A stretch of 64,000 nucleotides of DNA from an uncultured virus (IMG/VR IMGVR_UViG_3300042881_004667) (IMGVR_UViG_3300042881_004667); one strand, 5' to 3'; positions 16,055 through 40,879 are shown, numbered from the stretch's first letter. Notes: a model not told the origin generated them from the sequence alone. Program-made: numbers and translations.

Positions 16055-16499
16055 TTTTAAGCAAGTGATTACGTACGGTATGCCTGTGACAATTAAGTAT
16101 TTTTGCTATCTGTTGGTTTGTATAACCTTGTAAATAAAGTTGTTTTATCTGTAAAGAATTATAAAATTTATTGCTTTTGTTTTCTTTTATGCCATTTGAA
16201 AATCTTCCTTTTGTCATTTTATCTTTTATATTTTCCAATTGAGTTCCTGCTCTTAAATGCAAGGGATTGCAACAAGAAGGATTGTCACAGGTATGCATTA
16301 CCACTTGATTTGCATCGAGTTGTTTATTCCAAAATAAAACATAAGAAAAACGGTGCGCCAAATATTCTTTGTGTTTAAATTTAAAACGTCCATATCCTGT
16401 TACATATTTGTTTGCCAACCAAGGCCAGCAAGCATTTAAACCACCTTCGCAATCAATTCTTTCAAGGAAATTTTTGTACGTGTTTGGTTTTTGTGTCAT
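16047..16499 (-). CDS. HNH endonuclease with C-terminal HTH
   Basis: CWPW...GYGRF...AHRFSY...VMHTCDNPSCCNPLHL...GT..EN. Confidence 0.88.
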   Translation of the reverse strand: MTQKPNTYKNFLERIDCEGGLNACWPWLANKYVTGYGRFKFKHKEYLAHRFSYVLFWNKQLDANQVVMHTCDNPSCCNPLHLRAGTQLENIKDKMTKGRFSNGIKENKSNKFYNSLQIKQLYLQGYTNQQIAKILNCHRHTVRNHLLKIK

Positions 16500-22588: not shown

Positions 22589-23110
22589 TTAGGGATTCCA
22601 ATGATGCTCAAGACGATGAGCTAGCGCAGCTAGGTGCGCTTCATAAGGGGTGTCGTATGTGCCGACGTAAAACATTTTTACGCCATCAATCTCAGTGCGT
22701 CCCCACTGAGCCCTGTACCTACCACCCTTTGGGTTGAAGCAAACATACTTAAAGCCGTGCTTGTTTCGGACTACAGTGTTTACCATATTTGTTGACCTAG
22801 AGACCCACCGCAGATTCTCTGGTCTGTTATCAGATTTGTTGCGGTTTATATGATCGCAAAAATCACTTGGTGATGGTTGGCTTCCCGTGAGCCAAAGCAC
22901 AAGTCTGTGACAGCAAAATGGGATTTTATTGAGGATTACACGGCAATAACCCTTTCCCGATGGAGATCCAGCGGGACGACCAATTTTGGCACGCCCGTGC
23001 CCGTAATTGGATTGCTTCTTCCAAATCAAGCCTGTAGGACTACCTGATTCCACCTGAAGCCACTCTTTAATTAAGTGCATGTTCTGTACTTCCTTCTCAT
23101 AGGGAGTCAT
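22589..23110 (-). CDS. HNH endonuclease with AP2-like C-terminus
   Basis: HRLVL...CDHINRNKSDNRPENLRW...VGTYDTPYEAH. Confidence 0.85.
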   Translation of the reverse strand: MTPYEKEVQNMHLIKEWLQVESGSPTGLIWKKQSNYGHGRAKIGRPAGSPSGKGYCRVILNKIPFCCHRLVLWLTGSQPSPSDFCDHINRNKSDNRPENLRWVSRSTNMVNTVVRNKHGFKYVCFNPKGGRYRAQWGRTEIDGVKMFYVGTYDTPYEAHLAALAHRLEHHWNP

Positions 23111-23429
23111 CGAGTTGCTCCAATGCACGAAGAATTGTGTTGTAGTGCCCCGCAGGAAGTTCGAACAAACCATCTAGCTCATCTAAAACTTCAATCGCTC
23201 CTGCCTTCAAGCTTGGCGGCTTGGGGCGGCGATGCCTGCGAAGGTCATCTGCGCTCCATGGAGGCAGCTTTGGCAGCCACGCACAACACGCCTCCAGCTC
23301 CTGATCAGCGCCCCAGCGGGCGGCTTGGGTGGCAAATTGCCTAATTAAATTATCAGAAGTAGCAGTGCATTTGTTCCACCACTCAGTCACCAGCTCAGGC
23401 GGCGGAGTAATCGGGTGTTCTTGAGTCAT
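23097..23429 (-). CDS. hypothetical protein, MTQEHPITPPPELV paralogue 1
   Basis: shared motif AARWGADQELEACC. Confidence 0.7.
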   Translation of the reverse strand: MTQEHPITPPPELVTEWWNKCTATSDNLIRQFATQAARWGADQELEACCAWLPKLPPWSADDLRRHRRPKPPSLKAGAIEVLDELDGLFELPAGHYNTILRALEQLDDSL

Positions 23430-24588: not shown

Positions 24589-24800
24589 TTAAGGAAGTAA
24601 TGCCAACGAGATGTGGGATCAGTGTAACGGATTACTGAACAACCCTCGTACTGATCAAGGACTTCAAACTTAGATTTGTTTTTGAGTTCATCATTGGATT
24701 TATCAGGTAATAAAAAGATTGCAGCTAATAAACTACCAACTGCAAACAAAAGGATTGTTGTGCAGGACCCACGAATAAAATGGATTTGGTTCTCAGTCAT
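24579..24800 (-). CDS. small membrane protein
   Basis: MTENQIHF... with a TM segment; coupled to neighbours. Confidence 0.5.
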   Translation of the reverse strand: MTENQIHFIRGSCTTILLFAVGSLLAAIFLLPDKSNDELKNKSKFEVLDQYEGCSVIRYTDPTSRWHYFLKCS

Positions 24801-25146
24801 TAAGTTGCTCCAGTGCACGACGAAGAGTTGTTTCATCTTCGTCATTAAGACAGTCACCTTCAACAAGACAATCAATGATCTGTTTAACCTCATCTTTTAA
24901 GCTCAACGGCTTGGGGCGCATTGCTTGTCTTAACGCATCTCCTGATGGTGTGATTGTTAAATGTGCACTGAACAAAGCCCAAGTGTCAAGCCATCTTGCG
25001 TCTTGTTCTAGTTGTTGATCAGCGCCCCAGCGTGCGGCTTGGGTGGCGATGTGCTGTGAAATGCCAAACTCGTCATCTTCTGGGCCTTCTTCCAGCCACT
25101 GCATCACCAGTTCAGGCGGTGGGGTGATCGGGTGTTCTTGTGTCAT
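24793..25146 (-). CDS. hypothetical protein, MTQEHPITPPPELV paralogue 2
   Basis: shared motif ATQAARWGADQ. Confidence 0.7.
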   Translation of the reverse strand: MTQEHPITPPPELVMQWLEEGPEDDEFGISQHIATQAARWGADQQLEQDARWLDTWALFSAHLTITPSGDALRQAMRPKPLSLKDEVKQIIDCLVEGDCLNDEDETTLRRALEQLND

Positions 25147-25147
25147 G

Positions 25148-25447
25148 TCATTCACCAGGGACAAGGACTTCTTTGGTTAGGCGTTCTAGCGCCGATACAG
25201 GACAGATGCGTGCAGTGGCATGTTCAGTTGGGCTAGGCAAATGATCCCAACGAACAAGCAAGAACTTTTGGGTAGCACCACGTGAGTTGTTCTTGTAGTT
25301 GATACCAACCACTTCACCATAGCGCTGGCTCCTGTACTGAGAGATTCGTTCTCGTGTTTGTTGATTGTTTGTGTAGATCCCATGGGGCTTGGGACGTTCA
25401 GCAACACGGTCACCAATCTTGTAATCAAACTGTCGCTTGGTTGTCAT
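25148..25447 (-). CDS. hypothetical protein (possible SH3/KOW-like fold)
   Basis: YKIGDRV...GEVVG...LVRWD. Confidence 0.6.
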   Translation of the reverse strand: MTTKRQFDYKIGDRVAERPKPHGIYTNNQQTRERISQYRSQRYGEVVGINYKNNSRGATQKFLLVRWDHLPSPTEHATARICPVSALERLTKEVLVPGE

Positions 25448-25779: not shown

Positions 25780-26072
25780 GATTGTTTTAGATCAAGTGAG
25801 TTAAGTAGTTCAAGGCAGTTAGCTGGCCCCATGATCTTAAATGCATCTGCAATTAATTCATGCCTAAGCTCAGGGAGCTGGTAGTAATTGTACAAAATTT
25901 CTTCTGCACGATCGAAGTCATCATAGGTACCTGTCAACTTTTCAAGTGCAAAGCCAGGCATGTTATCAACTAAGGCTGTAACAATTGCTTGTCTCACTTG
26001 AGTCCATGCTTGCTCTGGTATCAATGCAATGGTTTTGTCGACAAGGTCAAGATCAATGGAATCGTTTGTCAT
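25776..26072 (-). CDS. hypothetical protein
   Basis: ORF from MTNDSIDL. Confidence 0.6.
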   Translation of the reverse strand: MTNDSIDLDLVDKTIALIPEQAWTQVRQAIVTALVDNMPGFALEKLTGTYDDFDRAEEILYNYYQLPELRHELIADAFKIMGPANCLELLNSLDLKQS

Positions 26073-26122
26073 GAAAGAAGGCCCCCGCTTACGCAGGGGC
26101 AGTGCATGAAACACAATTAATC

Positions 26123-26482
26123 TTACATAACTACAGCGGTTGTGTCTACAATTCCATCGCCTCCATCCGTGTTCATGTTCTGTAACATTTGCTCTAGGAT
26201 CTGAGCTTGCGCCTGTGCCTGTGCCATGAAGTGAGCAGCACGTTCTGCTGACATGACATGGCAACGTCCATTGGGTTCAATGAAAAGCCAACTGCCATCA
26301 GGCTGCTGCTTACCCTGGAGAGCTAGGCGTTCTGAGTTGCGTGTGTACTTGAGTTCGACGTTGTGGTAGTCACGCAGGCCTTGGTCGTCAGTCCAGGTAG
26401 CACCAACGTGGTAGCCCCTGTCATCAGCACTGAACGCATGGAACTCAGGGATGAGGCACTTGATCGAACGAATGATGTCCAT
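26123..26482 (-). CDS. hypothetical protein
   Basis: 119-aa ORF right after the tRNA. Confidence 0.65.
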   Translation of the reverse strand: MDIIRSIKCLIPEFHAFSADDRGYHVGATWTDDQGLRDYHNVELKYTRNSERLALQGKQQPDGSWLFIEPNGRCHVMSAERAAHFMAQAQAQAQILEQMLQNMNTDGGDGIVDTTAVVM

Positions 26483-26500
26483 TGGTATAGTGTGTTGAGT

Positions 26501-26576
26501 TGGTAGCCGACCTCGGATTTGAACCGAGACTTGACGGAGCTTAAATCCGTTGCCTCTGCCGTTGGGCTAGTCGGCC
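26501..26576 (-). tRNA. tRNA with anticodon TAA (Leu), short variable loop, encoded CCA
   Basis: GGCCGAC/GTCGGCT-A-CCA acceptor; ACGGA-TTTAAGC-TCCGT anticodon arm; CTCGG-TTCAAAT-CCGAG T arm. Confidence 0.85.
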
Positions 26577-26782
26577 TCACTTGGACTTACACTCACATCG
26601 ATTGATGCATGCTGCCAAGTATGATCATGAGGCAACGGCTCAGTACCGTAGTCCCATGTGTCGTAGTCATCCTCATTACGAGGATCGTCTTCAATCAGAA
26701 TGTACTGTGGTGAATTGTCAGTGATGTATTCACCAATGTTAGCCATGGCCATGGCAAGGAGCTGGTCATCGGTGTAGTCCAT
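26567..26782 (-). CDS. acidic hypothetical protein
   Basis: 71-aa ORF; its 3' end overlaps an RNA element and the tRNA 5' end. Confidence 0.5.
   Translation of the reverse strand: MDYTDDQLLAMAMANIGEYITDNSPQYILIEDDPRNEDDYDTWDYGTEPLPHDHTWQHASIDVSVSPSEAD
26579..26620 (-). promoter_or_regulatory. CAU/UGUAAGU structured element abutting the tRNA 5' end
   Basis: RNA ACUUGG CAG ... UGUAAGU CCAAGU, 2 nt before tRNA G1. Confidence 0.55.
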
Positions 26783-26831
26783 AGGTAAAGAGGCATCCCA
26801 TTTACGAGGATAGGATGCCCCTGCTGTGGCT

Positions 26832-28547
26832 TCAGCTCTTAGAGCTTAGCTCATCATTGCGAGATTGCAAGGCCAGCTTGAATGCATTGGAGTACTTCTC
26901 CTTCTGGTCTTCGTCCAATCGCTGGTTACCAACGCCAGCAATCTGCTTGACATTCATGACACCCATAGATACATCCAGTTGTATGGTGAAGGTTGGCTTG
27001 CCATCAATCATGCAGAGCACAATGAAGTGCTTGCGTTTCTTGATGTCCTCTGCATACTGGGACGCAGAGCCAACACAGTTACGGACAGCTTGGCCCCATT
27101 GGGCTAGCTGATGGGTGTCAATAGGCTGAAGGAATGTCCAGTCACTATCACCCATGCTGACCTTGATAGGTGCAGGGAATAGATCCTGGTGTAGTGATTC
27201 CTTCTTGTTAGATATCTTCCATGCTTCTGCTTGCACATAGTCATGGAAGTCAGGCATGCGCCAACGCTTAGGTGCTTCGATAGTTTTGTCGTTCTCAAAG
27301 ATGCGCATCATCATTGAGAACGTATCATTCATTTCGTACCATGCATGAATAAAAAAGTCGTGATCAAATAGAGGATAGATCCGACGATTCTCTTCGTTTG
27401 ATTTCTCAACATACTTGCGCATCATGTTAAGGAATGATGTAACAGACATGTGCTCACGTAACCAATCAGTTAGTGCATCATTGATACGCAAGTGATTAAG
27501 GTTGACTGTACGCAGTTCTTCAAAGTATGTACGGTAGTGATCCAGTGGGCAATCAGGCCACACACGATTGATAAAGTAAATGGAGTTTGTGGTTTGCTCA
27601 AACTCTTTGTAACCATACTTGATTGCCTTACGTAGATAGTTGTCAGGATTATTGTATTCACTTACAGATTTGTCAAGCATAAGCTGGAGTTGCTTCTTGA
27701 TAGAAGGTGTAGTAATAATGTGTTCAATACTTCTGATGGTTATGTAGGTTGTGGCTGCGTAGTTATTCTTGGCTGTCCATGCATTAGCAAGATCAACAAT
27801 GCCATCAACCGTTAGTTTGAATGCGGAACGATCTTCGATACAGTTTGTTAATGCAGATGGAAAATCAAGTGCATCAAGAATGTTGTTACATTTGATGCGA
27901 TCAAACATAGAACGGCAATCGTCCCATGTTGGAATCGTTTCCATCAATGTTTTCTCAAAGGCATTGATTGCGTCATTCATATCACGTGACTTCTGGTAGT
28001 AACTAGCTACACCCATAGCACGCCAGTTGCGTGCATCATTACCAGCAATAACATCTTGCTTGGTTATAGTACGTGAGTAGGTAAAGATCTGTGACCCACG
28101 ACCAATGGTGTGTTCAGTACATTGATCTTTACTATTCCAGATATGACGAGGCAGCATCTTAGCTGCGGCTGCAGTATTCTTGAATGCATAGGCATAGCCA
28201 TAGAGATAGTCCTCCCCCTTGGCAGGTAGCCATGCTGCATACCAGCATTGCTCGAAGTGATAGAGGATAGCAGTGGTAATCGTACGTGCTGCTGGTGTAG
28301 CAATATCAACCACTCTGGTAAAGCGGTGATAACGCTCTGATACACCTGATGCATTGATGTGGTCAATCGCATCTTGTTGTAAGCCAGCACGTACCACATT
28401 CTCAGGGATGAGATGTGGGATATTACCCAGTGGATACTTAGCTTTCTTCGTAGGCTTCTTGGGTTCTTGCTCTTTGACCAAAGCCTTGAGCTTTGGATCG
28501 TAAGCCAGGAGTTCTTGTTGCAGGTTGGAGGGTAAAGCGAAATGCAT
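26832..28547 (-). CDS. PcfJ-like domain protein
   Basis: C-terminal FHD...LAQWGQAVRNCVGS..Y...TIQL......QIAG..N pattern. Confidence 0.7.
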   Translation of the reverse strand: MHFALPSNLQQELLAYDPKLKALVKEQEPKKPTKKAKYPLGNIPHLIPENVVRAGLQQDAIDHINASGVSERYHRFTRVVDIATPAARTITTAILYHFEQCWYAAWLPAKGEDYLYGYAYAFKNTAAAAKMLPRHIWNSKDQCTEHTIGRGSQIFTYSRTITKQDVIAGNDARNWRAMGVASYYQKSRDMNDAINAFEKTLMETIPTWDDCRSMFDRIKCNNILDALDFPSALTNCIEDRSAFKLTVDGIVDLANAWTAKNNYAATTYITIRSIEHIITTPSIKKQLQLMLDKSVSEYNNPDNYLRKAIKYGYKEFEQTTNSIYFINRVWPDCPLDHYRTYFEELRTVNLNHLRINDALTDWLREHMSVTSFLNMMRKYVEKSNEENRRIYPLFDHDFFIHAWYEMNDTFSMMMRIFENDKTIEAPKRWRMPDFHDYVQAEAWKISNKKESLHQDLFPAPIKVSMGDSDWTFLQPIDTHQLAQWGQAVRNCVGSASQYAEDIKKRKHFIVLCMIDGKPTFTIQLDVSMGVMNVKQIAGVGNQRLDEDQKEKYSNAFKLALQSRNDELSSKS

Positions 28548-28572
28548 GATGAGGTTGGAGTTGAGTTGAGTA

Positions 28573-28600
28573 TAGGCAGTTTAACGTCATGCCCAGGACG
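28573..28600 (-). promoter_or_regulatory. 28-nt leader pseudoknot, copy 5
   Basis: RNA CGUC C UGGGCA U GACG UUAAAC UGCCUA. Confidence 0.7.
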
Positions 28601-28624
28601 ATGTGTTAAAGAATTGGGATTCCT

Positions 28625-28837
28625 TTAACGTATGCTTCTTAACGTGTCAAGAAGTTCTTCATCGGTCTCATCACCAGGCCATGTGCCAATGCACTGGTCA
28701 AGTGTTGATGCTGGCATACGCCAACGACTTGGAACTGGTAAGTGTTTAGCAAAGCCAGTTACCAAGTACACTCGACCCTTGGGACCACGCAGTACAAAGT
28801 AAAACTTTTTAAACTCGATAGAAAATCCAATAATCAT
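28625..28837 (-). CDS. hypothetical protein
   Basis: coupled ORF ending GTWPGDETDEELL. Confidence 0.55.
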   Translation of the reverse strand: MIIGFSIEFKKFYFVLRGPKGRVYLVTGFAKHLPVPSRWRMPASTLDQCIGTWPGDETDEELLDTLRSIR

Positions 28838-29169
28838 TGTTCGTCGGGCAAAGATTCAATAACTTCTTTGATATCGTTATAAAGATCATCATCTATACAT
28901 GCATGACATTTCAGGAGTGAATCAAGTGCGCGCGCCTTCTTGCTCAGTGACTTGGGGCGGCGGGCGGTGCGGAGACTGTCGATAGTGTCACTGGGAGACC
29001 ATATGCGCTTCAAGTGCTCACAACACGCCTCCAGCTCCTGATCTGCGCCCCATCGGGCGGCACATCGGGCGATGTGATGGGTGTATGGAATGAGAGCGGC
29101 GTTATACGCAGTGCTCTCCCACTGCTGCACTAGCTCAGGCGGTGGAATAATCGGATGTTCTTGCGTCAT
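28834..29169 (-). CDS. hypothetical protein, MTQEHPITPPPELV paralogue 3
   Basis: shared motif AARWGADQELEACC. Confidence 0.7.
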   Translation of the reverse strand: MTQEHPIIPPPELVQQWESTAYNAALIPYTHHIARCAARWGADQELEACCEHLKRIWSPSDTIDSLRTARRPKSLSKKARALDSLLKCHACIDDDLYNDIKEVIESLPDEQ

Positions 29170-29198
29170 TGTTAAATAGATTGTTTGGATTGATAGGT

Positions 29199-29226
29199 TA
29201 AGCAGTTTAATGTCATGCTCAGGACA
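29199..29226 (-). promoter_or_regulatory. 28-nt leader pseudoknot, copy 6
   Basis: RNA UGUC C UGAGCA U GACA UUAAAC UGCUUA. Confidence 0.7.
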
Positions 29227-29231
29227 TGTGA

Positions 29232-29297
29232 CTTAGTTAGTCACAATTGACGAGTTGTCAAAGACGTATACCTTAGTTAGTCACAATCGACGAGTTG
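29232..29297. repeat. 26-bp direct repeat (1 mismatch)
   Basis: CTTAGTTAGTCACAATyGACGAGTTG at 29232-29257 and 29272-29297. Confidence 0.85.
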
Positions 29298-29519
29298 CCA
29301 CTGAGGATCGAGTTGATCAAGATAACTGCAGAAGCCATCTTCGTCAAAAGGAATCGGTTCCCCTGGATCCAACTCAATAGTTGTTGTGCACAGTGCAGGA
29401 GCCCACTCTTCAGGGTCGAAGCGAGTCGCCCGATAGAGCAGGCGCATGTCGTCAACAACTGCTGTAACTGTGACATGAGTCTGTGTGAAATAAGTATCTT
29501 CGATTGCAAGGACTGTCAT
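29277..29519 (-). CDS. hypothetical protein
   Basis: 80-aa coupled ORF. Confidence 0.6.
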   Translation of the reverse strand: MTVLAIEDTYFTQTHVTVTAVVDDMRLLYRATRFDPEEWAPALCTTTIELDPGEPIPFDEDGFCSYLDQLDPQWQLVDCD

Positions 29520-29704
29520 CAGTCAGGCTCCACGAATGAGACGGTGGTTGAGATGTAACACTTGTAACGAGTCCACATCTTTGCTGTTGTGTACTCGTCA
29601 ACAAAACGATCGCGATCAAAATTATGATTGTGAGCACGCTCCATTGCGCAGCGTGCAACGTTGATGCGATCAAACAAGCTGAGGTTTGAGTCTGTGGTAC
29701 GCAT
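29519..29704 (-). CDS. hypothetical protein
   Basis: ORF with CAACU-rich leader and upstream structured element. Confidence 0.6.
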   Translation of the reverse strand: MRTTDSNLSLFDRINVARCAMERAHNHNFDRDRFVDEYTTAKMWTRYKCYISTTVSFVEPD

Positions 29705-29805
29705 GATTGAATTGAGTTGAGCAGATGGACTGAAGCTGGGACTTACACTGCCTCCTTCTGTGCTATTTGCACAACGAGTACAGATGCCCAGATTGTTAGA
29801 TTAAC

Positions 29806-30123
29806 TTATGGGAAACCAGGGGTATCAATACGTTGCTTACGCCACTCAGCACGCTTTGCTTTGGTGTAGTACAAAGGTGCTACTTGTTCTTGTACTGATT
29901 CCAGTATAGATACAATGTCTTCCATGAATTCAGTGTATTGATCAATTTGTTTCTCAAGACCATCATCATTTAATCTGATGAGATCAAACCGCAACTTCTT
30001 GTAGAAATCAGTGCGTGCTCTGAGCATGTTAATCAGTGCCCACCATTGATCTTCATTCAGATCAAGAGTAATAGTCCTAGAACCAGTGGGGAAGTGAGGA
30101 TTGAGGGCTTGTTTCTTAGGCAT
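29806..30123 (-). CDS. hypothetical protein
   Basis: 105-aa ORF. Confidence 0.65.
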   Translation of the reverse strand: MPKKQALNPHFPTGSRTITLDLNEDQWWALINMLRARTDFYKKLRFDLIRLNDDGLEKQIDQYTEFMEDIVSILESVQEQVAPLYYTKAKRAEWRKQRIDTPGFP

Positions 30124-30182
30124 GGTGTTGTGTTGAGATGGCAGTTGGATACGGGACTTACACCTAAAGGATGCCCAGTTCT

Positions 30183-30380
30183 TTAGATTAACTTAATGTT
30201 TGGAATGCTTAAACCTGTGCCAGGGATACTGACTGATCCTTTGATGCCATTGGGATTTGCATTGACAGTCAGTTGGAATGGCCCAAGCTTGATCTGTTTA
30301 CTCACTGACTTGATACCATGTTCAGTGATGTTCACACCATGAATGGTGCGATCAAAACTAATGGGAGATTTCTTAGTCAT
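30183..30380 (-). CDS. hypothetical protein (DUF4236-like beta-rich)
   Basis: IKLGPFQLTVN...SVSIPGTGLS. Confidence 0.55.
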   Translation of the reverse strand: MTKKSPISFDRTIHGVNITEHGIKSVSKQIKLGPFQLTVNANPNGIKGSVSIPGTGLSIPNIKLI

Positions 30381-30468
30381 TTAAATAACTTGTGAATAAT
30401 TTCATTGAGAGTAATTGTGAAGCACAAGATACTAACAATGAGAACGATTTTAACTAATAGACAAGTAA

Positions 30469-30678
30469 TCACTTGAGATCCTCCGGCATAAGTGCCATGG
30501 CATCATCGTCGTCCATGTTTGTCATAACAAACTTCTCTCCATTGGGTGCAATGAAGCCCCCAATAAATCCGATGCCATGCTTTTCTGCCGACTCTTTCAT
30601 CTTGGCTACAAGTTGCATGGCTTCCAAACGCTGGATGTCAATGGCGTCGGGGATGCGAGGAGTGTTGGGGTTGGTCAT
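30469..30678 (-). CDS. hypothetical protein
   Basis: 69-aa ORF. Confidence 0.6.
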   Translation of the reverse strand: MTNPNTPRIPDAIDIQRLEAMQLVAKMKESAEKHGIGFIGGFIAPNGEKFVMTNMDDDDAMALMPEDLK

Positions 30679-30781
30679 TGGTGTTGAGTTGATTAATTAG
30701 GTCAGTCTACCAGAGTCGTCAAGGTAAAGGCCATGCATCAGGGATGCTGATACACGGCCAGTACTTATGTACTACCTGATG

Positions 30782-31069
30782 TTATGAGTGCATGGCAAGG
30801 TGTTCTTTCCATGCAGCAGTGTGCATCTCATCTGCTGTGATCGGAGGCTCACCAGGTTCGTTAGGTGTTGGATCGTAGTCGATCTCGTCTTCCAACATCC
30901 CGATCACCTCATCGATGATGTTACGCATGTGTGGATCGAGATGCTCGTCCATCTGATGACGCTTATCTTCGCGAGCACAGATGGCCTTGAGTGCATCAAC
31001 TACTAGCTGCAATTGATGATACTCATTCTTTGTCCAGGAATACTCTGGATACTTCTTAGCTTGTTCCAT
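30782..31069 (-). CDS. hypothetical protein
   Basis: 95-aa ORF. Confidence 0.6.
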   Translation of the reverse strand: MEQAKKYPEYSWTKNEYHQLQLVVDALKAICAREDKRHQMDEHLDPHMRNIIDEVIGMLEDEIDYDPTPNEPGEPPITADEMHTAAWKEHLAMHS

Positions 31070-31155
31070 GGTTGAGGTGATGTTGATGTTGATGTAAAGC
31101 CTGGGACTTACACCACACTAAATGTGTGGATGCCCAGGGGAGTGATGGGTAAAAG

Positions 31156-31500
31156 GATGAATACCGTGTTATAGAAGGGTGAATACCGTCTTATTATCTT
31201 AGATATAGGGTTTCATACGTTGTTAAAAAAGTGTATTAAACCTGGTACCTAAGGGATGAATACCAGCTTATCCATACAACTTTCTAGAAGAGTATGAAAC
31301 CCTATAGAGGGTTAGATAAGACTGTATTCACTGTTGAATAAGACGGTATTGACGGTTTCCCCCGTCTTCCCCATGTACATGTGTACTATTCCCTGGTACA
31401 AGAGGAGATATCTTTGGTACGTGTGTACTAGATATAGATATGAATGAAGGATATCCCTGGTACATACCTACTAGTCAGAGGTACATACCAGGGATGGGTA
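31156..31500. repeat. non-coding region with nested direct and inverted repeats (candidate origin or control region)
   Basis: TGAATACC x3; inverted arms 31180-31218 / 31292-31330; CCTGGTAC repeats; GTAC-N4-GTAC palindromes. Confidence 0.6.
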
Positions 31501-31554
31501 GGTATTAATACTTAATATTGTCTGGTAACAAAGAATTGCCAATACATGCCAATA

Positions 31555-31920
31555 CTATAAACTAGACGGATAACCAGGGAGCATTTGATTAAGACTTGGT
31601 GCATATGTTTTGAAATAATATCTTTCTGCTTCTGCAAGGATTGAAGAAGCTACTCCTATATCAAACGTTTCTAAAACTTCATACTCAAATAAAAACATAG
31701 TCATTTGAAATACTTCTTTCAAAGAAAAGGTTTGGTTTAGGATGTTTTGCTTGCAAAGTGATAGTCTCCATTGCGGTGAATTACAAAAGCGATGATAATA
31801 AGTAAATCGTAAGCGTAGATTAGAAGTAGCTCCAATGTATTCTTCCTCGTCTTTATAAATGATTTTATAAATACCAGGAAGTTTAGGCGCTGTTTTAAAT
31901 GACAAAGCTGTGTAGTACAT
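31555..31920 (-). CDS. GIY-YIG endonuclease
   Basis: PGIYKI...YIGATSNLRLR...E.....P.LN. Confidence 0.8.
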   Translation of the reverse strand: MYYTALSFKTAPKLPGIYKIIYKDEEEYIGATSNLRLRFTYYHRFCNSPQWRLSLCKQNILNQTFSLKEVFQMTMFLFEYEVLETFDIGVASSILAEAERYYFKTYAPSLNQMLPGYPSSL

Positions 31921-31923
31921 AGC

Positions 31924-32166
31924 CTATTGTTCTTTGGGTGGAAGCATGATCCATGCTGTGTAGTTAGCACTGCTTCTGTCTACACGTATCAATCCGTACT
32001 CTTCCAGTCGCACCAAGGCCTGGAGATATTGCTCAAGCCTTGAGCTTTGCGCTGGAAGTTTAGGTACGAAGCATGGTGTGTCCCCATACTTCTTCTTGTG
32101 GTTCAAGTAATACGCATAGAGATTGCGTTGGTTGATACTGAGTGCAGGTGTTGCAGTTGCTTGCAT
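31924..32166 (-). CDS. hypothetical protein (possible winged helix)
   Basis: ALVRLEEYGLIRV. Confidence 0.55.
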   Translation of the reverse strand: MQATATPALSINQRNLYAYYLNHKKKYGDTPCFVPKLPAQSSRLEQYLQALVRLEEYGLIRVDRSSANYTAWIMLPPKEQ

Positions 32167-32169
32167 TGA

Positions 32170-32538
32170 TCAGCAGTAGTACGGACGAGACTCAGGGTAA
32201 GCCTTAGCTAGTTCGTTGGAGAAACTGATGTCGATGTTGGATCGAGTTGTCGTATCTCCAAGAGACGGCTGGCCTTCGATCTCGTACTCTTCGAAGTACT
32301 TGACGTAGACCTGGATCGCTTGCCTTTTGGAGAAGATGCAGTGGCTGACAAGAGGTTCTCCTTGGGTGTAGTACCAACCTCCTTCTTCGGGTCCGCCGTA
32401 CCTGAGATAGGTTTCGTGGACCGTGACGACCGTTGGGTCTTTGTGCTCGAAGTACTTGTGCACTTTGTAGGCATTGATTGCGAAGCGTGCTTTGTAGGAC
32501 TTGGGGTAGAACTTCTTGAGTTCTGAGATGTAAGACAT
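32170..32538 (-). CDS. hypothetical protein
   Basis: YGGPEEGGWYY...RPYYC, a small-phage-protein motif. Confidence 0.7.
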   Translation of the reverse strand: MSYISELKKFYPKSYKARFAINAYKVHKYFEHKDPTVVTVHETYLRYGGPEEGGWYYTQGEPLVSHCIFSKRQAIQVYVKYFEEYEIEGQPSLGDTTTRSNIDISFSNELAKAYPESRPYYC

Positions 32539-32845
32539 GATGCAAACTCCGTGATGATGATTGAAATGATTGCGATCAGGATGACAATGATGTCACCGTC
32601 ATCCCATGCTTGACGCAGTGTGTACTTAGGCTTGGTCATCGTAGGTCTCCAGTTCAGGTGGGTTGAGTTCGTATTCTTCACGCATGGCTTGCTCTTGTTC
32701 GTACGCCATGTCAGCCATGGCATCAAGCAAGTCAGCGTTGCGTTGCTCGTCAATGAAGTTAGGGTCTCTCATGGTTTGAGTTGAAGTAGATGGATAGTAA
32801 ACCCTGGGACTTACACACCGTACTTACGTCGGTGCTGCCCAGGGA

Positions 32846-33070
32846 TCAGAAGGTATTAGCCACCTTTGTTGCTAAGGAATCAACAAAGGTTGGACCATCT
32901 TCTTGGAATGCGAGCATGTATTGTTCACGCTCATCCTCATCCATCAATGCACCTTGGGTGTGATGTGCATGATAGAAGGCTAGTGCGTTGACGATTGCAT
33001 ACTTCTCATCAACGTTGATGATAAGGTGGTACCGCTTGTTGTCTTCAGTCTGATCCATGAGTGCGCCCAT
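32846..33070 (-). CDS. hypothetical protein
   Basis: 74-aa ORF with structured leader. Confidence 0.55.
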   Translation of the reverse strand: MGALMDQTEDNKRYHLIINVDEKYAIVNALAFYHAHHTQGALMDEDEREQYMLAFQEDGPTFVDSLATKVANTF

Positions 33071-33155
33071 GTTGAATTGAGGTAGGTAGACAGTTGGACA
33101 TGGGACTTACACCACTCTTGCGAATGATTCTCAATAGTGGATGCCCATGTGTTGG

Positions 33156-33512
33156 TCACTTCATATATAAATATGTTCCCGCCCAATCAGCATCCTGGAT
33201 GCAGGTGGCAAACGATACATCGTCCATGAGGTTGTAACGTACGTGCTTAGCTGGTGACGCCCAGCTTGCTGGTTTGTAAACAGAACCAGATTGACGGGCA
33301 ATAAATGCATGGACTGATGCACCAGTTTTGCCGTCAATGGTTGAACGCTTGACGTCACGTTGAATAAGTTTGTAGTACTTGGTACCTTTAACAATGTCAA
33401 AGGTAATGCCGCCATCTCCATAGTGCTTAGCGTAACTAGCAAGGAGCTTGTCGATGAGGCAATTGATGCGAGCCTCAAGTACTTGGATGTGCTCGGCTAG
33501 TTGTGTTGTCAT
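33156..33512 (-). CDS. conserved phage early protein
   Basis: KYYKL...SVHAFI...GSVYKPASW..PAKHVRYNL...DWAG.YLY. Confidence 0.7.
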   Translation of the reverse strand: MTTQLAEHIQVLEARINCLIDKLLASYAKHYGDGGITFDIVKGTKYYKLIQRDVKRSTIDGKTGASVHAFIARQSGSVYKPASWASPAKHVRYNLMDDVSFATCIQDADWAGTYLYMK

Positions 33513-33583
33513 GGTTTGAGTTGAGTTGAGTAAGGTTTGTACTAGGACTTACACCACACATTGTGTGTGGATGCCTAGTGTTA

Positions 33584-33958
33584 TTAACGAGTGAGCCTAT
33601 TGGTAAACGTGTATTGATAACCACTGTCGTTGGAAGGTTCCTTATAACTTACACCTCTGACAATATTACCAATCGCTGATTCACTAATGGCATAGTCTTT
33701 GGCAATGGATCGTAGTACTTCACCATTGCTCCTACGCATACGAATGTCATCCAGTTGGTTATCGCTGAGGAAATTGTTGCGACGTCCTCGTTTGATTGGA
33801 TCTTTCTCGATCGGAGGACGACGTCTCACTCGGCGTAATACAATTGTCATGTACTTAGGATTACAGTTGACAATGCTACCGATTGAATCGTAGTCGTACC
33901 CCTGGCACCTGAGTTGCCAGATCCGATCTTCCTTGACGATGGATACTCGATTGCGCAT
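33584..33958 (-). CDS. double HTH DNA-binding protein
   Basis: two HTH-like segments (YDSIGSIVNC; LRSIAKDYAISESAIGNIVRG). Confidence 0.65.
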   Translation of the reverse strand: MRNRVSIVKEDRIWQLRCQGYDYDSIGSIVNCNPKYMTIVLRRVRRRPPIEKDPIKRGRRNNFLSDNQLDDIRMRRSNGEVLRSIAKDYAISESAIGNIVRGVSYKEPSNDSGYQYTFTNRLTR

Positions 33959-34027
33959 GGGGATTAATGAGTTGGTTGGGTGACTGGGACTTATATCCTC
34001 ATGGAGGAAAGCCCAGGGTATGGCTAG

Positions 34028-34300
34028 CTAGTAGCCCATGACGTACGGCTTGTCAGCCTTGATGAGCTGTGGTCCAAGCGTCGTGTACTTACTGGCTAGT
34101 GCTGCGATGGTGCTAATACTAGCCGCAAGTATGAGTGCAGCCACCACAGCTTTCAATAGATGGTTGGACTTACGAGTCTCACCATAAGAATCGAGGTGGA
34201 TGAAACCGTTATGCATGCGATAGATCGTCTTCATGTCAAACGGTCTCCAGGATATAGCGACAGCAAATGTAGTCTTCATCTGGTAAACAGACATCGACAC
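34028..34300 (-). CDS. membrane protein (start probably near MKTIYR)
   Basis: TM segment KAVVAALILAASISTIAALA. Confidence 0.5.
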   Translation of the reverse strand: MSMSVYQMKTTFAVAISWRPFDMKTIYRMHNGFIHLDSYGETRKSNHLLKAVVAALILAASISTIAALASKYTTLGPQLIKADKPYVMGY

Positions 34301-34511
34301 CTCGTTCGTGCGAACCGTAAGTATCTACCCATCGCTCGTCAATTAGTACATCGAGACACTCAAGGAATGCATCAATGTACTCACGTGCTTGGGGTGTTGT
34401 TGCTACCCACTGGATATAGACGGTGTTACCATCAAACTCCAGGTGGTAATGCTCTATCTTGAACACTGCAAGTGCAGAGTCAAGCTCTTCTTTGCCAACT
34501 GTTAGTGACAT
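34236..34511 (-). CDS. hypothetical protein
   Basis: 91-aa ORF. Confidence 0.55.
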   Translation of the reverse strand: MSLTVGKEELDSALAVFKIEHYHLEFDGNTVYIQWVATTPQAREYIDAFLECLDVLIDERWVDTYGSHERGVDVCLPDEDYICCRYILETV

Positions 34512-34583
34512 GTTAAATGCAATGGAATGGAATCCAGGATGTTGAGTCCTGGTGGGAAGGGCCGAAGCCCCTCCAATCAGGAG

Positions 34584-34823
34584 TCAGTCCTCATGCCTGC
34601 GTTCCCAACGAAGCAGATCCCTGTTGAGATCTACCTTGTGTTGGAGTATCACGCAGAATGGGACTAGGTCTTGGAACTGGGCTAACCCATCTTGCCATTG
34701 GAAGAAGAGTTGTAGTGCAGCTTGACGCTGTTCTTCAATCTCTTGGTCAATGGCAGGGGAGTCTCTGCGAGCCAATAGACGTGCGTCTTGGGTCAGCAGT
34801 TGTTCAACAGCTTGGTAGTTCAT
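34584..34823 (-). CDS. hypothetical protein
   Basis: 79-aa ORF. Confidence 0.6.
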   Translation of the reverse strand: MNYQAVEQLLTQDARLLARRDSPAIDQEIEEQRQAALQLFFQWQDGLAQFQDLVPFCVILQHKVDLNRDLLRWERRHED

Positions 34824-34917
34824 AGAACTAGCTTGGTGTCGTGTGGTGTAGTGCAGGTGTGACCTGCAGAAAACTCACCGGAAATACATGTGTACTACCG
34901 GGAGAGTTATGTGCAGA

Positions 34918-35115
34918 TTACATGTACTTACTGTTGATGCAGTAGTATGTGTCGCCTAAAAATCCTCGTGTGTATATGAGGTTGTGTTGTGGTCTTGCGT
35001 TGCAAGTATTCTTGTAGTGTTGGTTGAGAACCTTCTGGCTTCCAATAGATAAGAGGAAGCCCACACCAGTCCCAAGAATAAGAGCAACACAGTAGTCGAC
35101 AGTTGAGTTGGACAT
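34918..35115 (-). CDS. small membrane protein
   Basis: N-terminal TM segment. Confidence 0.55.
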   Translation of the reverse strand: MSNSTVDYCVALILGTGVGFLLSIGSQKVLNQHYKNTCNARPQHNLIYTRGFLGDTYYCINSKYM

Positions 35116-35144
35116 TGAATGATTAGGAATAGTTATGTGTTGAG

Positions 35145-35528
35145 TCAGAAGTCTAGGTAGTCTTCTTCCTCAGGTTGAGCAGCAATATCAATAGCCTTAG
35201 GCTTTGGTGCTGCACCGATAGTGGCACGTACACCTGTGAGTTTGATCTCAGGGTACTTGAGTGCCACGAGTTGATCATCCTTCTGGTAGTGCGTCTTAAT
35301 GGAATTGATTCGCACATTCCACTGCGTAAGAATGAGTTGATGCCCTGGGACCAAGGTGCCCTTGTTGTATGCAGATAACAGACCATTGCTGTTCGTAAAC
35401 CGCAAGCGGCACGAACCACCGAATGGATCGTTAACTGCAATACTTACTGCCAGGAAAAGGCTGTTATCTTCCCTGGACTTAAGCACCTTTAGATCAGTGA
35501 CATAACCAATGATGGTTGAACTGAACAT
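35145..35528 (-). CDS. hypothetical protein, possibly OB-fold/SSB-like
   Basis: TIIGYV...SIAVND start and acidic tail EEEDYLDF. Confidence 0.55.
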   Translation of the reverse strand: MFSSTIIGYVTDLKVLKSREDNSLFLAVSIAVNDPFGGSCRLRFTNSNGLLSAYNKGTLVPGHQLILTQWNVRINSIKTHYQKDDQLVALKYPEIKLTGVRATIGAAPKPKAIDIAAQPEEEDYLDF

Positions 35529-35629
35529 GAGGATAGAGATGGGGTTGACAGGCAGGATGTGTAGTCCTGCAGTAAATAAACCAGGCAGTACATACGTACC
35601 ACCTGGGATTACTTAGAGCAAGCTACTGG

Positions 35630-35914
35630 TTAGAGCAGTGAATAGATACGTTCCTGCTCCATGATGATACCAAAGTTGTAGTAGTCTTCCATCTCCTGGT
35701 ACAGCTCCTTAACACTTGACGGGATGCCACCCGTGATGGTACGGACATCAATGTCGATCCATTCACGAGTGCCGTCAAAGTTAGGAGTGGCAACAAGGCA
35801 GTACTTCTCAAAGTGAAGCTGGTTCTTATTGCCGTACCAAGTAACACGATACTTGCGGTCGTCGGAAGGCTGATAGATCAGTGGTTCCATTGTGTGGTGT
35901 GTAGTAGATGCCAC
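35630..35914 (-). CDS. hypothetical protein
   Basis: ORF, probable start MEPLIYQ. Confidence 0.55.
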   Translation of the reverse strand: MASTTHHTMEPLIYQPSDDRKYRVTWYGNKNQLHFEKYCLVATPNFDGTREWIDIDVRTITGGIPSSVKELYQEMEDYYNFGIIMEQERIYSLL

Positions 35915-35971
35915 GGGATTGTGGCAATAACTGTGGGAGGACTTACACCTCCCAGTGCCGTGTTAACGGAC

Positions 35972-36154
35972 TCAGTTGGTTGGGTAGTTGTTGGTTGCGC
36001 ACCATTCCATGTGTGCGCTGTGTTGTGTTGCCGGCCAGTCATGAGTGCGACATTGCTTAGCTGTAGCCACATCCAAGAGATGGATGGTGACCTGGGTAGC
36101 AATACCCATAGTTGTAGCAATGGCGATGATGCCGGCAGCTAGTTGTTGAGTCAT
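35972..36154 (-). CDS. small secreted or membrane protein
   Basis: N-terminal hydrophobic segment, C...DWP...WC. Confidence 0.55.
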   Translation of the reverse strand: MTQQLAAGIIAIATTMGIATQVTIHLLDVATAKQCRTHDWPATQHSAHMEWCATNNYPTN

Positions 36155-36229
36155 GGTGGTATGGAATAGATGCCACTGGATTGTGGCAATGCTGATGGGA
36201 GGACTTGCACCTCCCTGTCCGCTTACGGA

Positions 36230-36421
36230 TCAGCGCCCGCTGTAAGTAACGCGGGAGTTGTTGCGTTGGTTGACTGGCGCGTAGTCGCCAGTGATGCGAC
36301 GGTCGTTGTAACGGATGACATCGCCGGTGATGCGGCGGTCAAGTTGAGACTCGTGCCACTCTTGTGATGCAGCCTGAGTAGCTGCAGAGAATGCACGTCC
36401 GAGGGATGTACGGAAACCCAT
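36230..36421 (-). CDS. small protein with RRITGD repeats (63 aa)
   Basis: MGFRTSLGRAF...DRRITGD VIRYN DRRITGD...; has a repeated leader unit. Confidence 0.55.
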   Translation of the reverse strand: MGFRTSLGRAFSAATQAASQEWHESQLDRRITGDVIRYNDRRITGDYAPVNQRNNSRVTYSGR

Positions 36422-36497
36422 TGTGTTAGGTAGTGGATGCCACTGGATTGTGGCAATGACCAGAGCCAGGCATTGCACCTGGCTTGGGAGCTATAAC

Positions 36498-36686
36498 TCA
36501 CCTGGTCTGCTGTAGTTGACGCACGAGCTTGCGCCCTGCGTCTACGGTCATGAGTGTGGAGCGATGCCACTCGCCCCACTCTTGGCCTTTGAGGACAAGC
36601 TTGGTGACACGCACCAAGTTCTCCTCCTTGTTCACCTGGAACTGATACACAGCAGTATCTGTAGTCAGGGTGAAGTAGATGATCAT
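36498..36686 (-). CDS. first ORF of the early arm, hypothetical
   Basis: MIIYFTLTTDTAVYQF... with upstream GAGGA. Confidence 0.55.
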   Translation of the reverse strand: MIIYFTLTTDTAVYQFQVNKEENLVRVTKLVLKGQEWGEWHRSTLMTVDAGRKLVRQLQQTR

Positions 36687-36926
36687 GATTGATCCTCTTG
36701 ATCTGCGACTGACGTGCGCAGAAGTAACGGCTGCGTTTAACGTCCAGCTTGACGAATGACCCTTGGATCTATTGCTAACTCTTCTGTCTTGCTGTGTTGA
36801 AACAGTGACAATTACCTCGAGCTTCTCGATGAACTGTTCTGTCTCTCCCACTAGAACGCATAGCCGAAAAGCATTGCGCGCGAAGGGATCTCAAGGATTC
36901 GTACGCTGTTTGAAAGTGTTGCAGCC

Positions 36927-36947
36927 TGTGGAAAAACCTGTGGAAAA
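36927..36947 (-). promoter_or_regulatory. two tandem TTTTCCACA (DnaA-box-like) sites
   Basis: TGTGGAAAA at 36927-36935 and 36939-36947 in the strand-switch intergenic region. Confidence 0.4.
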
Positions 36948-37220
36948 CTCGTGCATGCCCCCGCTTCGCTCCAATTACTTCTCTACCCACCCACCGTTCT
37001 TTTTTTTCTATGCACATTCGCATTCCCACAGGTGATGCAAGACCCGTCAGAAAAATATTTTCCCTATTTTGGGTATATAGGGGCCATTTTTACGAAAAAT
37101 CGTACACTATCAACAAAAAGTGTAGACGCTGCAAGGAGTTTGCCCAAGTTTTTAGACAAAATAGCCGGGGATTCTACCCCGGCTTTACGTAGATTTAGTT
37201 ATTTTCTAAAAAATTAAAAA

Positions 37221-37457
37221 TTAAAAATTGGAATCAGGGTTGGAAATTTTGGAATTCTGGTTTTTAAAGTTGCTTGCCGCCATGAATGCGCTTTTATACT
37301 TATCGGAATCTGGTACTTGCCGTGCTAATTCCCGCAATGCACCCGAAGAAAACGTTTTTACCGTAACAGGATCAGCACCTGCCTTCTCTAAATCCGCCGT
37401 TTTACTTGCAATGGCACGCATTGCTACGGCACGTTGCATTCTGTCTACCGGATCCAT
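37221..37457 (-). CDS. hypothetical protein
   Basis: 78-aa ORF divergent from the late arm. Confidence 0.55.
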   Translation of the reverse strand: MDPVDRMQRAVAMRAIASKTADLEKAGADPVTVKTFSSGALRELARQVPDSDKYKSAFMAASNFKNQNSKISNPDSNF

Positions 37458-37564
37458 TGATTTCTTGGTACTTTTCTTGTATATAGTCTAACGTACGTTG
37501 TTATTTCTTGAATTTTGCACCTTAAAATACAGATATCATAGAAATATCAGACGATAGGACTCAC

Positions 37565-40500: not shown

Positions 40501-40879
40501 ACCATCAAGTCTGTTATCTAATCGTCCGGTAGCACCAGCACCGAAACCAACCGTGCGTAACCTGGAACCAACACAACTTGTTTTCCCTTCTAACGTTGTT
40601 CCGTCTATTGCACGTGCACGTACTACCGAAGCAGATGTTTACGCAACTAACCTTGCAAATTACATGACTAGAATGCAACGAGAGCGTGCAATGCCTACAA
40701 GCTCCCCCGTCGTTATTCAGCCTAATATCTTGACAACCGAAGAATATCAGTTGCCATTGGCTTTATCGGCGGGCGAACCAACACCGCAGATGCAAGGTCC
40801 AGTACGGGCGCCTAAACAACTTAGGAACTTTGGACCACCTATTAGGTATATTGAATCCTATCAACCCGGTCTTATTTGA
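37565..40879 (+). CDS. large putative virion internal protein (1104 aa)
   Basis: N-terminal Gly-rich TM, Pro/Thr-rich and coiled-coil segments, no Cys; first gene of the late arm. Confidence 0.7.
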   Translation: MAEYYGESRNEGPNLLGMAGLLGLGALAGAGGYYALRNLKGKGAAAEALTRSARNERPRGVQMGDLSSRVTGDTGYDPRITGNTQLPNRRPTRVTGDMGAPVNPRPVAPHAPEQYSNVPPSVAPTVPTSTLVDRRVQANYADIARELGNYPGETWTPPLDPRVNYGDITVARGETVPSAETKARAYANAAAKAVSELPRVTRPQSGINESMLITDPNTGEIYRRGGGGSYFASKAPAETGNLLTDLPEVVSAPKERMVRRQGRMVPLSSLQKNQPAIPTGTVDLNVLETQPTPVVPTVTTGILKGRDVDLALNQKGLYLSGNPYENELIINTDAGGSYQLKHPFATHPKESIRQAALEEERFAQDLLARAGIDLEQAQEARFSAFERAFGGNPAVQNQATDAVESGAAQQEGRVWQQLSRNEDLDKNQIAQLNAQADADYKAMLGSNPSEWSGVEGDVAINTVAKVLPDGLPIDQAEGIGYDLRTGERFKFGGARPARTGLAPGGTIELQTTPGADLGQSSAARFLQQRRKKLMEDIGTPGRLETQLAEAFGPEAWREDPKATRRRNALKLGAAGNEQFFENLNEGTVTIAGEQFPVSSLKEGVYMEDTAQNLANKVEGYKNWLGNIRLQETRNQIGLATELDNLVARDAALQADVADLGEQRRSFSSPQERDAYLTASRGREVALDLQDELDARINETLRNYEMSERRLAGAEKATARNIRRAAVPQKLMGGVEEGIVVRPVLTAPDNMVVEEGELSNIERGRPVGNYISQEQLEVVPGGLLSGGRAKSLVNIGGDLGIDPDTGERILLPNVNVDTGETLVQKLAGKRMGADVNVRGRGGVAGLDTRASIGIYGPELAEYGTAAMSKQGEYTEAANRPPTATESALPVHRVRKVEVDEQGEPVTKFFTYPSSYEDPQAYKYTQEPTQQARESIDMSRAVQGVYAKYPRDVADAMTGVALNELARRANKQLPSSVRTSGPSSLLSNRPVAPAPKPTVRNLEPTQLVFPSNVVPSIARARTTEADVYATNLANYMTRMQRERAMPTSSPVVIQPNILTTEEYQLPLALSAGEPTPQMQGPVRAPKQLRNFGPPIRYIESYQPGLI

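Follow-up and report, generated by a model that had tools for sequence, protein, structure and literature searches.

The early transcript of phage T7 is a single polycistronic RNA in which related hairpins with an internal loop, the RNase III sites R0.3, R0.5, R1, R1.1 and R1.3, lie between the genes, a few tens of nucleotides upstream of start codons, and combine a conserved loop with covarying stems. RNase III needs about two helical turns (some 20 bp in total), interrupted in T7-type sites by an internal loop. In chloroplasts, intercistronic protein barriers of the PPR10 type form at unstructured single strands read by PPR proteins, and the bound factor defines the 3' end of the RNA upstream and the 5' end of the RNA downstream. 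For T4-like phages, PMC4122927 describes promoter-early stem-loops (PeSLs), composite terminator/promoter motifs that form small conserved cassettes in the intergenic space around small early genes and serve as points of genetic exchange. Here we describe a hairpin family in a 64,000-nucleotide stretch of DNA from an uncultured virus (IMG/VR IMGVR_UViG_3300042881_004667), the whole of which is called the window below. The family, with CA(U/G) facing UGUAAGU in its internal loop, is a real structured element: its stems covary, it is strand-specific and it sits at gene boundaries. It resembles the T7 sites in every respect of position and form just listed, but differs in having helices as short as 5-6 plus 2 bp and a single-stranded heptamer as signature, in belonging to a phage of a cyanobacterial host, and in standing also before tRNAs and a capsid gene. 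The likeness to PPR10-type sites is by analogy: a bound factor would define RNA ends on both sides, in a setting of cyanobacterial-type expression, whereas the element here is a structured hairpin whose binder is only postulated. With PeSLs it shares a location at indel and replacement junctions between related phages, including a one-gene indel between two copies; it differs in that there are no promoter hexamers at the elements and no U-tract, and its phage is not T4-like.

The window is phage DNA, encoding DNA polymerase A, SSB, ThyX, terminase and several homing endonucleases (Pfam). Its nearest isolate is Synechococcus phage S-EIVl, the sole megablast match, whose polymerase is 66.7% identical in amino acids, and the source phage is an S-EIV1-like cyanophage. 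The genes from about 36.85 kb down to about 6 kb run leftward, on the minus strand, so the hairpin family must be read on that strand. The original prediction, made from the sequence alone, had listed eight copies; all are present on the minus strand, which codes for the leftward early genes, and their positions stand except that the copy placed at 32802 begins at 32803 (Table 1).

A covariance model trained on the eight window copies (R1), run over the window with all filters off, returned them at 33.0-50.8 bits, the next best match scoring 14.6. Because recovery of its own training copies is circular, a second model (R2) was built solely from 129 copies in other records; R2 recovers all eight, scoring them at 28.1-53.2 bits; its next best match reaches 16.7. 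The core GGACTTAYA, written for the plus strand, occurs 9 times in the window against 0.98 expected, a count reached in none of 100 shuffles; the ninth occurrence, at 35939, belongs to a simpler hairpin, GGGAGG-UGUAAGU-CCUCCC. Seven of the eight copies fold better than their shuffles (z from -2.3 to -4.0), the exception being the short copy, whose fold of -4.6 kcal/mol (z +0.18) is unstable by itself. The next best match of both models, at 59719, is a plausible degenerate ninth copy; it lies on the strand of the late genes, 4 nt past the stop codon of the open reading frame (ORF) at 58833-59714. No known Rfam family overlaps any element: with gathering thresholds, the Rfam 15 matches in the window are limited to two tRNAs and one group I intron, and at E<=10 over 26000-37000 none overlaps an element.

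Each element has an outer helix of 4-8 bp, always closed by two G-C pairs at its inner end; an asymmetric internal loop, 5' C-A-(U/G) opposite 3' U-G-U-A-A-G-U, in which the C, the UAAG and the flanking CC are invariant; and an inner helix of any sequence or length, often just 2 bp with a tetraloop. The covariation of the outer stem, the near-invariance of the loop and the free variation of the inner hairpin had all been predicted and are all borne out, one copy (33984) reading CUU / UAUAAGU. In an alignment of 82 distinct sequences, fitted to the model and so favouring structure, 88.8% of cells are paired, against 67.0% in shuffles, and double-change cells number 191 against 58.9. The covariation score, 0.454 against 0.122, was matched by 0 of 500 shuffles, and slid controls reached at most 0.141. 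RNAalifold, applied independently, predicted both helices and in addition a C9-G87 pair.

Every one of the 82 sequences has G-C at the two outer pairs nearest the internal loop; the third is GC in 60, UA in 17 and AU in 4, and all six inner pairs covary. Seven positions (C9, U84, A85, A86, G87, C89 and C90) are identical in all 82; elsewhere in the loop, the prevailing base is A at position 10 (70 sequences), U at position 11 (62, with G in 19), U at position 82 (71), G at position 83 (73) and U at position 88 (74). Columns 11 and 82 covary (UU 60, GU 11, GC 8, UA 2, CG 1), which indicates that the inner helix usually opens with a U-U pair. An alternative pairing seen in minimum-free-energy folds, C9-G83 and A10-U82 with U11 bulged, is not supported by covariation (A-C 8, C-U 5, C-A 8). 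By eye, the loop fits none of the consensus forms of the kink-turn, the loop E/sarcin-ricin motif, the UAA/GAN motif or the anticodon loop.

IMG/VR was scanned with an exact pattern, TGGGCATCC, a gap of 2-32 nt and GGTGTAAGTCCCA, and yielded at least 139 loci; the 80 loci listed lie on 68 contigs. The commonest inner part among 151 matches (51 distinct) is CC-NNNN-GG, the pattern itself fixing CC...GG, and so short an inner part suggests a functional core of about 29 nt. The commonest forms have 5-6 bp in the outer helix and 2 bp in the inner, while longer copies have about 6 plus 7-12 bp. Inner loops among the same 151 matches include UUAC (19), GCAA (13), UUGC (8), GUAA (7), UCCG (7), UUCG (7), GCGA (5) and GAAA (3), so that 28 of the 151 are of GNRA type and UUCG and UCCG contribute 7 each. 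GNRA and UNCG loops stabilise RNA hairpins, and their frequency here favours folding as RNA over folding as DNA and suggests that the inner helix merely needs to be closed.

Seven window copies end 25-31 nt ahead of an ATG, and the eighth ends 2 nt ahead of the tRNA-Leu(UAA) gene at 26576-26501, in agreement with the spacing and the tRNA adjacency first described. Across 99 unique contexts, a start codon was found in 96, at 14-31 nt past the outer stem in 86 of these (median 28, interquartile range 26-29); in the other 10 the start lies 90-111 nt away, with a tRNA between in nine and a tandem second copy in one. On the other side, the stop codon of an upstream ORF was found in 73 contexts and lies 2-13 nt before the element in 66 of them (median 5). 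Where a tRNA follows, the element ends 2-5 nt ahead of it, and the order element, tRNA, leader recurs in 8 related unique contexts. The leaders between element and start codon are poor in G (110 of 2277 bases, or 4.8%, across relatives), contain recurrent CAACUC words and have no Shine-Dalgarno sequence. Nearly all intergenic gaps longer than 50 nt in the early operon hold some hairpin followed by such a leader, the UGUAAGU family being the most numerous kind. Neither neighbour is strictly needed by the element, given two exceptions: copy 31100, which has no nearby stop codon, and copy 59719, which has no start codon for about 185 nt.

Some variations on this layout occur in relatives (labels with L denote related IMG/VR loci, those with G whole contig records). 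L013 has tandem copies about 25 nt apart, at 9447-9486 and 9511-9552. A second GC hairpin with a U-run stands between the element and tRNA-Leu(UAA) in L047 and L049. In the slot that corresponds to 26501-26576, L014, L020, L018 and L004 carry clearly different tRNAs that share the anticodon-loop core UUAA, taken as anticodon UAA; different tRNA sequences at one slot suggest tRNA replacement at a fixed site.

The distribution was assessed in 50 sources, comprising 49 IMG/VR loci retrieved with the DUF7717 protein (33156-33512 in the window, adjoining two copies) and 50 kb of S-EIVl. At E<=0.01, R1 gave 129 matches in 23 of the 50, and all 129 have the orientation of the genes: 127 are plus-strand matches in the oriented loci and 2 are minus-strand matches in S-EIVl. 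These related phages keep the loop, among them the isolate S-EIVl, the one carrier in culture. Copies in complete relatives are grouped in a single region and share one strand (Table 1), and two further contigs hold 5 and 6 copies. Three large contigs, G006, G007 and G008 (99-112 kb, rated 46-74% complete), have one copy each. In G006, G008 and locus L196 this copy lies 10-12 nt past a stop codon and about 52 nt ahead of the major capsid gene, whose product shows 67% amino-acid identity to the capsid protein of Synechococcus phage S-CBWM1; the 52-nt leader there is of a different kind and contains GGAG. S-CBWM1 itself has no copy at E<=1, though its environmental relatives carry one. In G007 the copy lies about 12 nt past the likely start point of a TTGTTA-15-TATAAT site, ends 5 nt before a tRNA-Asn gene and is the sole feature of that tRNA leader. 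The original assignment to early genes therefore holds for the eight window copies, which span 7.4 kb of co-oriented early genes, but is too narrow, since copies also precede the major capsid gene and a tRNA in a structural module. The family recurs in numerous aquatic phage contigs, from at least three phage lineages, and was not found in the cellular genomes searched. A looser pattern (GGCATCC, a gap, GGTGTAAGTCC) matched at least 120 loci in the species genomes, all without the outer stem and many in coding sequence, and these were judged chance matches.

Had the element been the binding site of an antiterminator or other phage protein, as the original prediction offered, the carriers should share that protein, and the idea is not borne out: in blastp comparisons of the window ORFs with G006, G007 and G008, phages with single copies, ThyX alone is common to all, and a protein of family phrog_32006 is shared with G006 only. 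DUF7717 was rejected as partner because it is also present in 27 loci that have no element, and the small phrog_32006 protein because, among G006-G008, it is found in G006 only. Neither RNase nor RNA-polymerase domains that might supply a partner were found in the window ORFs by Pfam or PHROGs. With no candidate phage protein common to the carrier lineages, the likeliest reader is a protein or nuclease of the host, if there is a reader at all.

The elements also coincide with joints of recombination. Comparison of the window with 11 relatives gave 172 homology breakpoints, of which 32 are internal to an element and 28.5% lie within 40 nt of one, as against 11.6% of random positions. The clearest case is a one-gene cassette with an element copy at each end, missing from L001: blastn segments align window 30380->30153 with L001 13634-13861 and window 29748->29286 with 13851-14313, and at the point where 29749-30152 is absent these two alignments overlap inside one element. 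Copy number also varies between close relatives. The element is used as a junction of gene-cassette exchange.

We tentatively propose that the family may well be cis-acting RNA punctuation on the minus-strand early/replication transcript, read by a host factor and defining or protecting the ends of RNA segments. The reader, an RNA-binding protein or endoribonuclease of the host, would recognise the invariant loop; the bound or cleaved hairpin would define and protect the ends of the adjoining RNA segments; and the hairpin would keep the unstructured ribosome landing pad behind it clear of pairing with upstream sequence. As a by-product, a repeated element of 30-60 nt would serve as a homologous joint for the gain, loss and swap of single-gene cassettes. 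Invariant unpaired bases, two fixed G-C clamps, freely varying helices and a heptamer displayed both as hairpin loop and as internal loop point to sequence-specific recognition. The position at unit borders, in the order stop codon, element, then leader with ORF or tRNA, and directly at tRNA 5' ends in at least two unrelated backbones, argues for a punctuation mark. Structure, covariation, strand, placement, distribution, junction use, the missing shared phage protein and the lack of copies in the cellular genomes searched are observed; we infer action at the RNA level, a host reader and an outcome in end definition or stability. On sequence evidence, a processing or stability role on the polycistronic transcript, as originally suggested, remains the best reading. 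The specific comparison with RNase III substrates is not supported: the helices of the commonest forms (about 5-6 plus 2 bp) are too short for that enzyme and the short window copy does not fold stably alone.

Several observations weigh against this proposal. No counterpart of the motif turned up in cellular genomes to point to a host reader: the strict consensus pattern gave 0 matches in one genome each of 185,579 species, R1 gave a single weak match in 151 cyanobacterial genomes, at a site pre-selected by the pattern, and R2 gave 0 in the same 151 under strict filters, a figure that applies to this genome sample. G006, G007 and G008 are incomplete enough that a shared phage protein could lie off-contig. 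The two exceptions in placement, 31100 on its 5' side, where it closes a non-coding region of 485 nt, and 59719 on its 3' side, make it ambiguous whether the 5' or the 3' neighbour is the one served. G-U pairs outnumber A-C mismatches by only about 2:1 (30 against 16), which leaves room for folding as single-stranded DNA. Finally, the breakpoint counts come from related, non-independent loci.

The tight spacing to start codons could instead mark a translation element, in which the hairpin and its fixed G-poor leader of 26-30 nt form an operator or enhancer of initiation without a Shine-Dalgarno sequence and might dock a ribosomal component or a repressor of early timing. Both the narrow range of distances and the G-depleted leaders without such a sequence fit this account. 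We nevertheless consider it unlikely, because tRNA-proximal copies put the next start 90-111 nt away, the capsid-gene copies have the different, GGAG-containing leader, and copy 59719 has no start nearby. A further lead, offered as no more than that, is the resemblance of the GGG...UAAGUCCC part to the cyanobacterial 16S rRNA hairpin GGGUUAAGUCCC, which we take to be helix 37, near protein S2. The two share a GGG/CCC stem, UAAGU on the 3' side of the loop and the 8-mer UAAGUCCC, but the rRNA hairpin has a 6-nt loop without CAU and without an inner hairpin; moreover the 8-mer match is within chance, arising in 18 of 200 shuffles of the locus, and R1 gives no score at the rRNA site.

A transcription signal (a terminator, a pause site, an antitermination RNA or an N4-like hairpin promoter read by a phage RNA polymerase) would explain the strand specificity and the position ahead of each unit, and starts just past the hairpin would fit the 2-5 nt to tRNA 5' ends. 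This we regard as quite unlikely. An intrinsic terminator is rejected, as a U-tract follows none of the copies, their flanks are rich in C and A, and the eight are absent from the 12 terminator-like sites of the window, whereas other hairpins of the same operon, at 35606-35581 and 30759-30729, do look terminator-like. A sigma-70 promoter, alone or in a PeSL-like composite, is rejected as well: promoter-like sites number 14 against 20 expected, none of them at an element, and a gap of only 26-30 nt between hairpin and ATG leaves no room for a promoter plus a leader. N4-type hairpin promoters are few, small hairpins with a 3-nt loop, used by a phage-encoded virion RNA polymerase; here there are eight copies with an internal loop and a variable inner hairpin, and Pfam on 85 window ORFs and PHROGs on 36 showed no RNA polymerase domain, although a very divergent polymerase might escape both. 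Nor do the single-copy phages share a polymerase-like protein with the window. The GNRA and UNCG loops, as such loops are usually classified, favour folding as RNA, and a count of eight in one operon is not typical of nut or put sites.

A decoy acting in trans would also suit the large number of copies on the earliest transcripts, the invariant single-stranded heptamer displayed both as hairpin loop and as internal loop, the lack of an evident phage partner and the G007 tRNA leader, in which the element is the sole feature. Hairpins released from the transcript, for instance by RNase P beside a tRNA, would act like multi-hairpin sponge RNAs and titrate an RNA-binding protein of the host or a defence nuclease. 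The chance of this seems to us slim, since a lineage with a single copy, as in three of them, would have a weak sponge, a decoy has no need of tight placement between stop and start, and no host target motif was found in the genomes searched.

It is likewise improbable that the family serves mainly as a cassette border, selfish or recombinational, and is maintained as a repeat for gene shuffling with little part in expression. The enrichment of breakpoints, the one-gene indel between two copies and the differing copy numbers of close relatives are what such a border predicts, but sequence identity suffices for recombination, and compensatory changes in both helices, invariant unpaired bases beside variable stems and tetraloop-capped minimal forms would be left unexplained. 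Least probable of all, and doubtful in the extreme, is a miniature self-cleaving ribozyme that would cut the polycistronic RNA without protein: its conserved bases do lie in one internal loop between replaceable helices, in unrelated phage backbones that share no candidate protein, and just where RNA ends are needed, before tRNAs and leaders, but no Rfam ribozyme matches it, and we know of no natural self-cleaving class as small or simple as some 29 nt with a single internal loop. The boldest version of an autonomous RNA device independent of phage proteins, a ribozyme of about 29 nt with an invariant C / UAAG core between two G-C pairs that would cut at gene and tRNA borders and spread across unrelated cyanophage lineages as a portable mark, is equally remote.

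A host repeat (REP-like) or the mimic of a CRISPR repeat was rejected as an identity for the family, for which no cellular copies were found in the 185,579 species genomes or, with R2, in the 151 cyanobacterial genomes. Literature searches, including a full-text search for its 12-mer, found no paper that describes the motif. The passages and six supplementary files searched of a catalogue of 8,495 IMG/VR candidate RNAs (PMC10690425) hold no match, though the catalogue may contain the motif unnamed. The element is uncatalogued and is a clean candidate for a new Rfam family.

Related hairpins lie close to the family. At the very start of the early operon, 35890-36497 on the minus strand holds three tandem-type intergenic units, each with a UG(U/C)AA(G/U)(U/G) heptaloop hairpin, a conserved AUUGCCACAAUCC(A/C)GUGGCAUC hairpin (GCAC..., stem GCCAC/GUGGC) and a short leader; these units are a separate element family that shares the heptamer. 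Another type, with GUAC-N6-GUAC-like cores (for example CCAGG UGGUACGUAUGUACUG CCUGG), occurs on the minus strand at 35581-35606, 34865-34905 and 30729-30790, and two of these hairpins are followed by a T-rich tract and score as terminator-like. A motif CCUG(G/A)GCAUGAC(G/A)UUAAACUGC occupies the same slot, with a leader of about 27 nt, before two genes (28570-28600 and 29195-29225, minus strand); it begins like the family but lacks UGUAAGU and may be a degenerate or sister form.

Other features of the window and its relatives were noted in passing. The non-coding region of 485 nt at 31070-31554, within the early operon, contains GGTATTCA(C/T)CC-like iterons and GTAC palindromes and may be an origin or a cluster of operators. 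Genes of homing-endonuclease type are unusually many (HNH-AP2 twice, HNH-HTH twice, GIY-YIG and HNH), and the group I intron, at 54843-55085 on the plus strand in the late region (Rfam, 91.5 bits), adjoins the HNH-HTH endonuclease ORF 54270-54848 on the minus strand. Three paralogous small proteins of family phrog_32006, whose function is unknown, are encoded on the minus strand at 28834-29169, 24793-25164 and 23097-23429, and a homologue in the S-CBWM1-like contig G006 is 43-46% identical. The tail module of G007 (L321 2898-18023) contains a single ORF of about 5,041 codons, presumably for a giant tape-measure-like protein.

Table 1. Element copies and associated features in the window and in related records (z, folding against shuffles; distances to ATG counted from the element).
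Feature	Coordinates	Strand	Following feature	R1 (bits)	R2 (bits)	z	Remarks
Composite copy, ACUUGG-CAG-hairpin-UGUAAGU-CCAAGU	26579..26620	-	tRNA-Leu(UAA)	40.9	34.5	-2.28	
tRNA-Leu(UAA)	26501..26576	-	G-poor leader of next ORF, ATG 26482				ARAGORN; Rfam tRNA 54.1 bits; between copy 26579 and that leader
Composite copy, long inner hairpin	29736..29791	-	ATG 29704, 31 nt on	39.1	33.0	-2.88	
Short copy, CUGGG-CAU-CC UUUA GG-UGUAAGU-CCCG	30152..30178	-	ATG 30123, 28 nt on	33.0	28.1	+0.18	
Composite copy	31100..31138	-	ATG 31069, 30 nt on	50.8	53.2	-4.00	Closes 485-nt non-coding region
Composite copy, CAG variant	32803..32843	-	ATG 32772, 29 nt on	47.8	48.2	-3.47	
Composite copy, outer stem CAUGGG/CCCAUG	33099..33149	-	ATG 33070, 28 nt on	44.2	48.1	-2.62	
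Composite copy, outer stem ACUAGG/CCUAGU	33541..33579	-	ATG 33512 (DUF7717 gene), 28 nt on	49.1	49.6	-2.85	
Divergent copy, CUU / UAUAAGU	33984..34016	-	ATG 33958, 25 nt on	37.4	39.1	-3.47	
Weak candidate ninth copy, UUGG-CAU-UGCUCAGCA-UGUAAGC-CCAA	59719..59745	+		14.6	16.7		R1 E 0.067; R2 E 0.045
G-free, CA-rich leader, example ACAAACCUUACUCAACUCAACUCAAACC	33513..33540	-	Start codon				Between element and start codon
One-gene cassette (ORF 29806-30123 plus leader)	29749..30152	-					Element copy at each end; absent from L001
Minimal hairpin, 6 bp, UGUAAGU as 7-nt loop on GGGAGG/CCUCCC	35935..35953	-	Second conserved hairpin, GCCAC-AAUCC(C/A)-GUGGC			-3.33	
Minimal hairpin, loop UGCAAGU, stem GGGAGG/CCUCCC	36197..36215	-	Same second hairpin			-3.28	Conserved in L001, L004, L006
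Homing-endonuclease-type genes	8321-8965, 16047-16499, 22589-23173, 31555-31920, 54270-54848, 63018-63356						
G004, 7 copies	61898-70414						79.5 kb, rated 100% complete
G005, 8 copies	27744-38072						
G003, 7 copies							
G002, 6 copies							
S-EIVl (S-EIV1), 2 copies	41436-41478 and 40726-40787 of the record						

S-EIV1-like cyanophages are a widespread freshwater lineage whose hosts seldom use Shine-Dalgarno sequences and, to our knowledge, have no Rho, and the hairpin family bears on how their early transcripts are organised. A signal as compact as this, at least 29 nt long and built round a sharply delimited invariant loop, offers a handle on the host factor, or the RNA chemistry, that would punctuate cyanophage messages. 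The elements mark joints of gene exchange between S-EIV1-like phages, and the same hairpin could possibly be used as a small insulator part for cyanobacterial gene expression.

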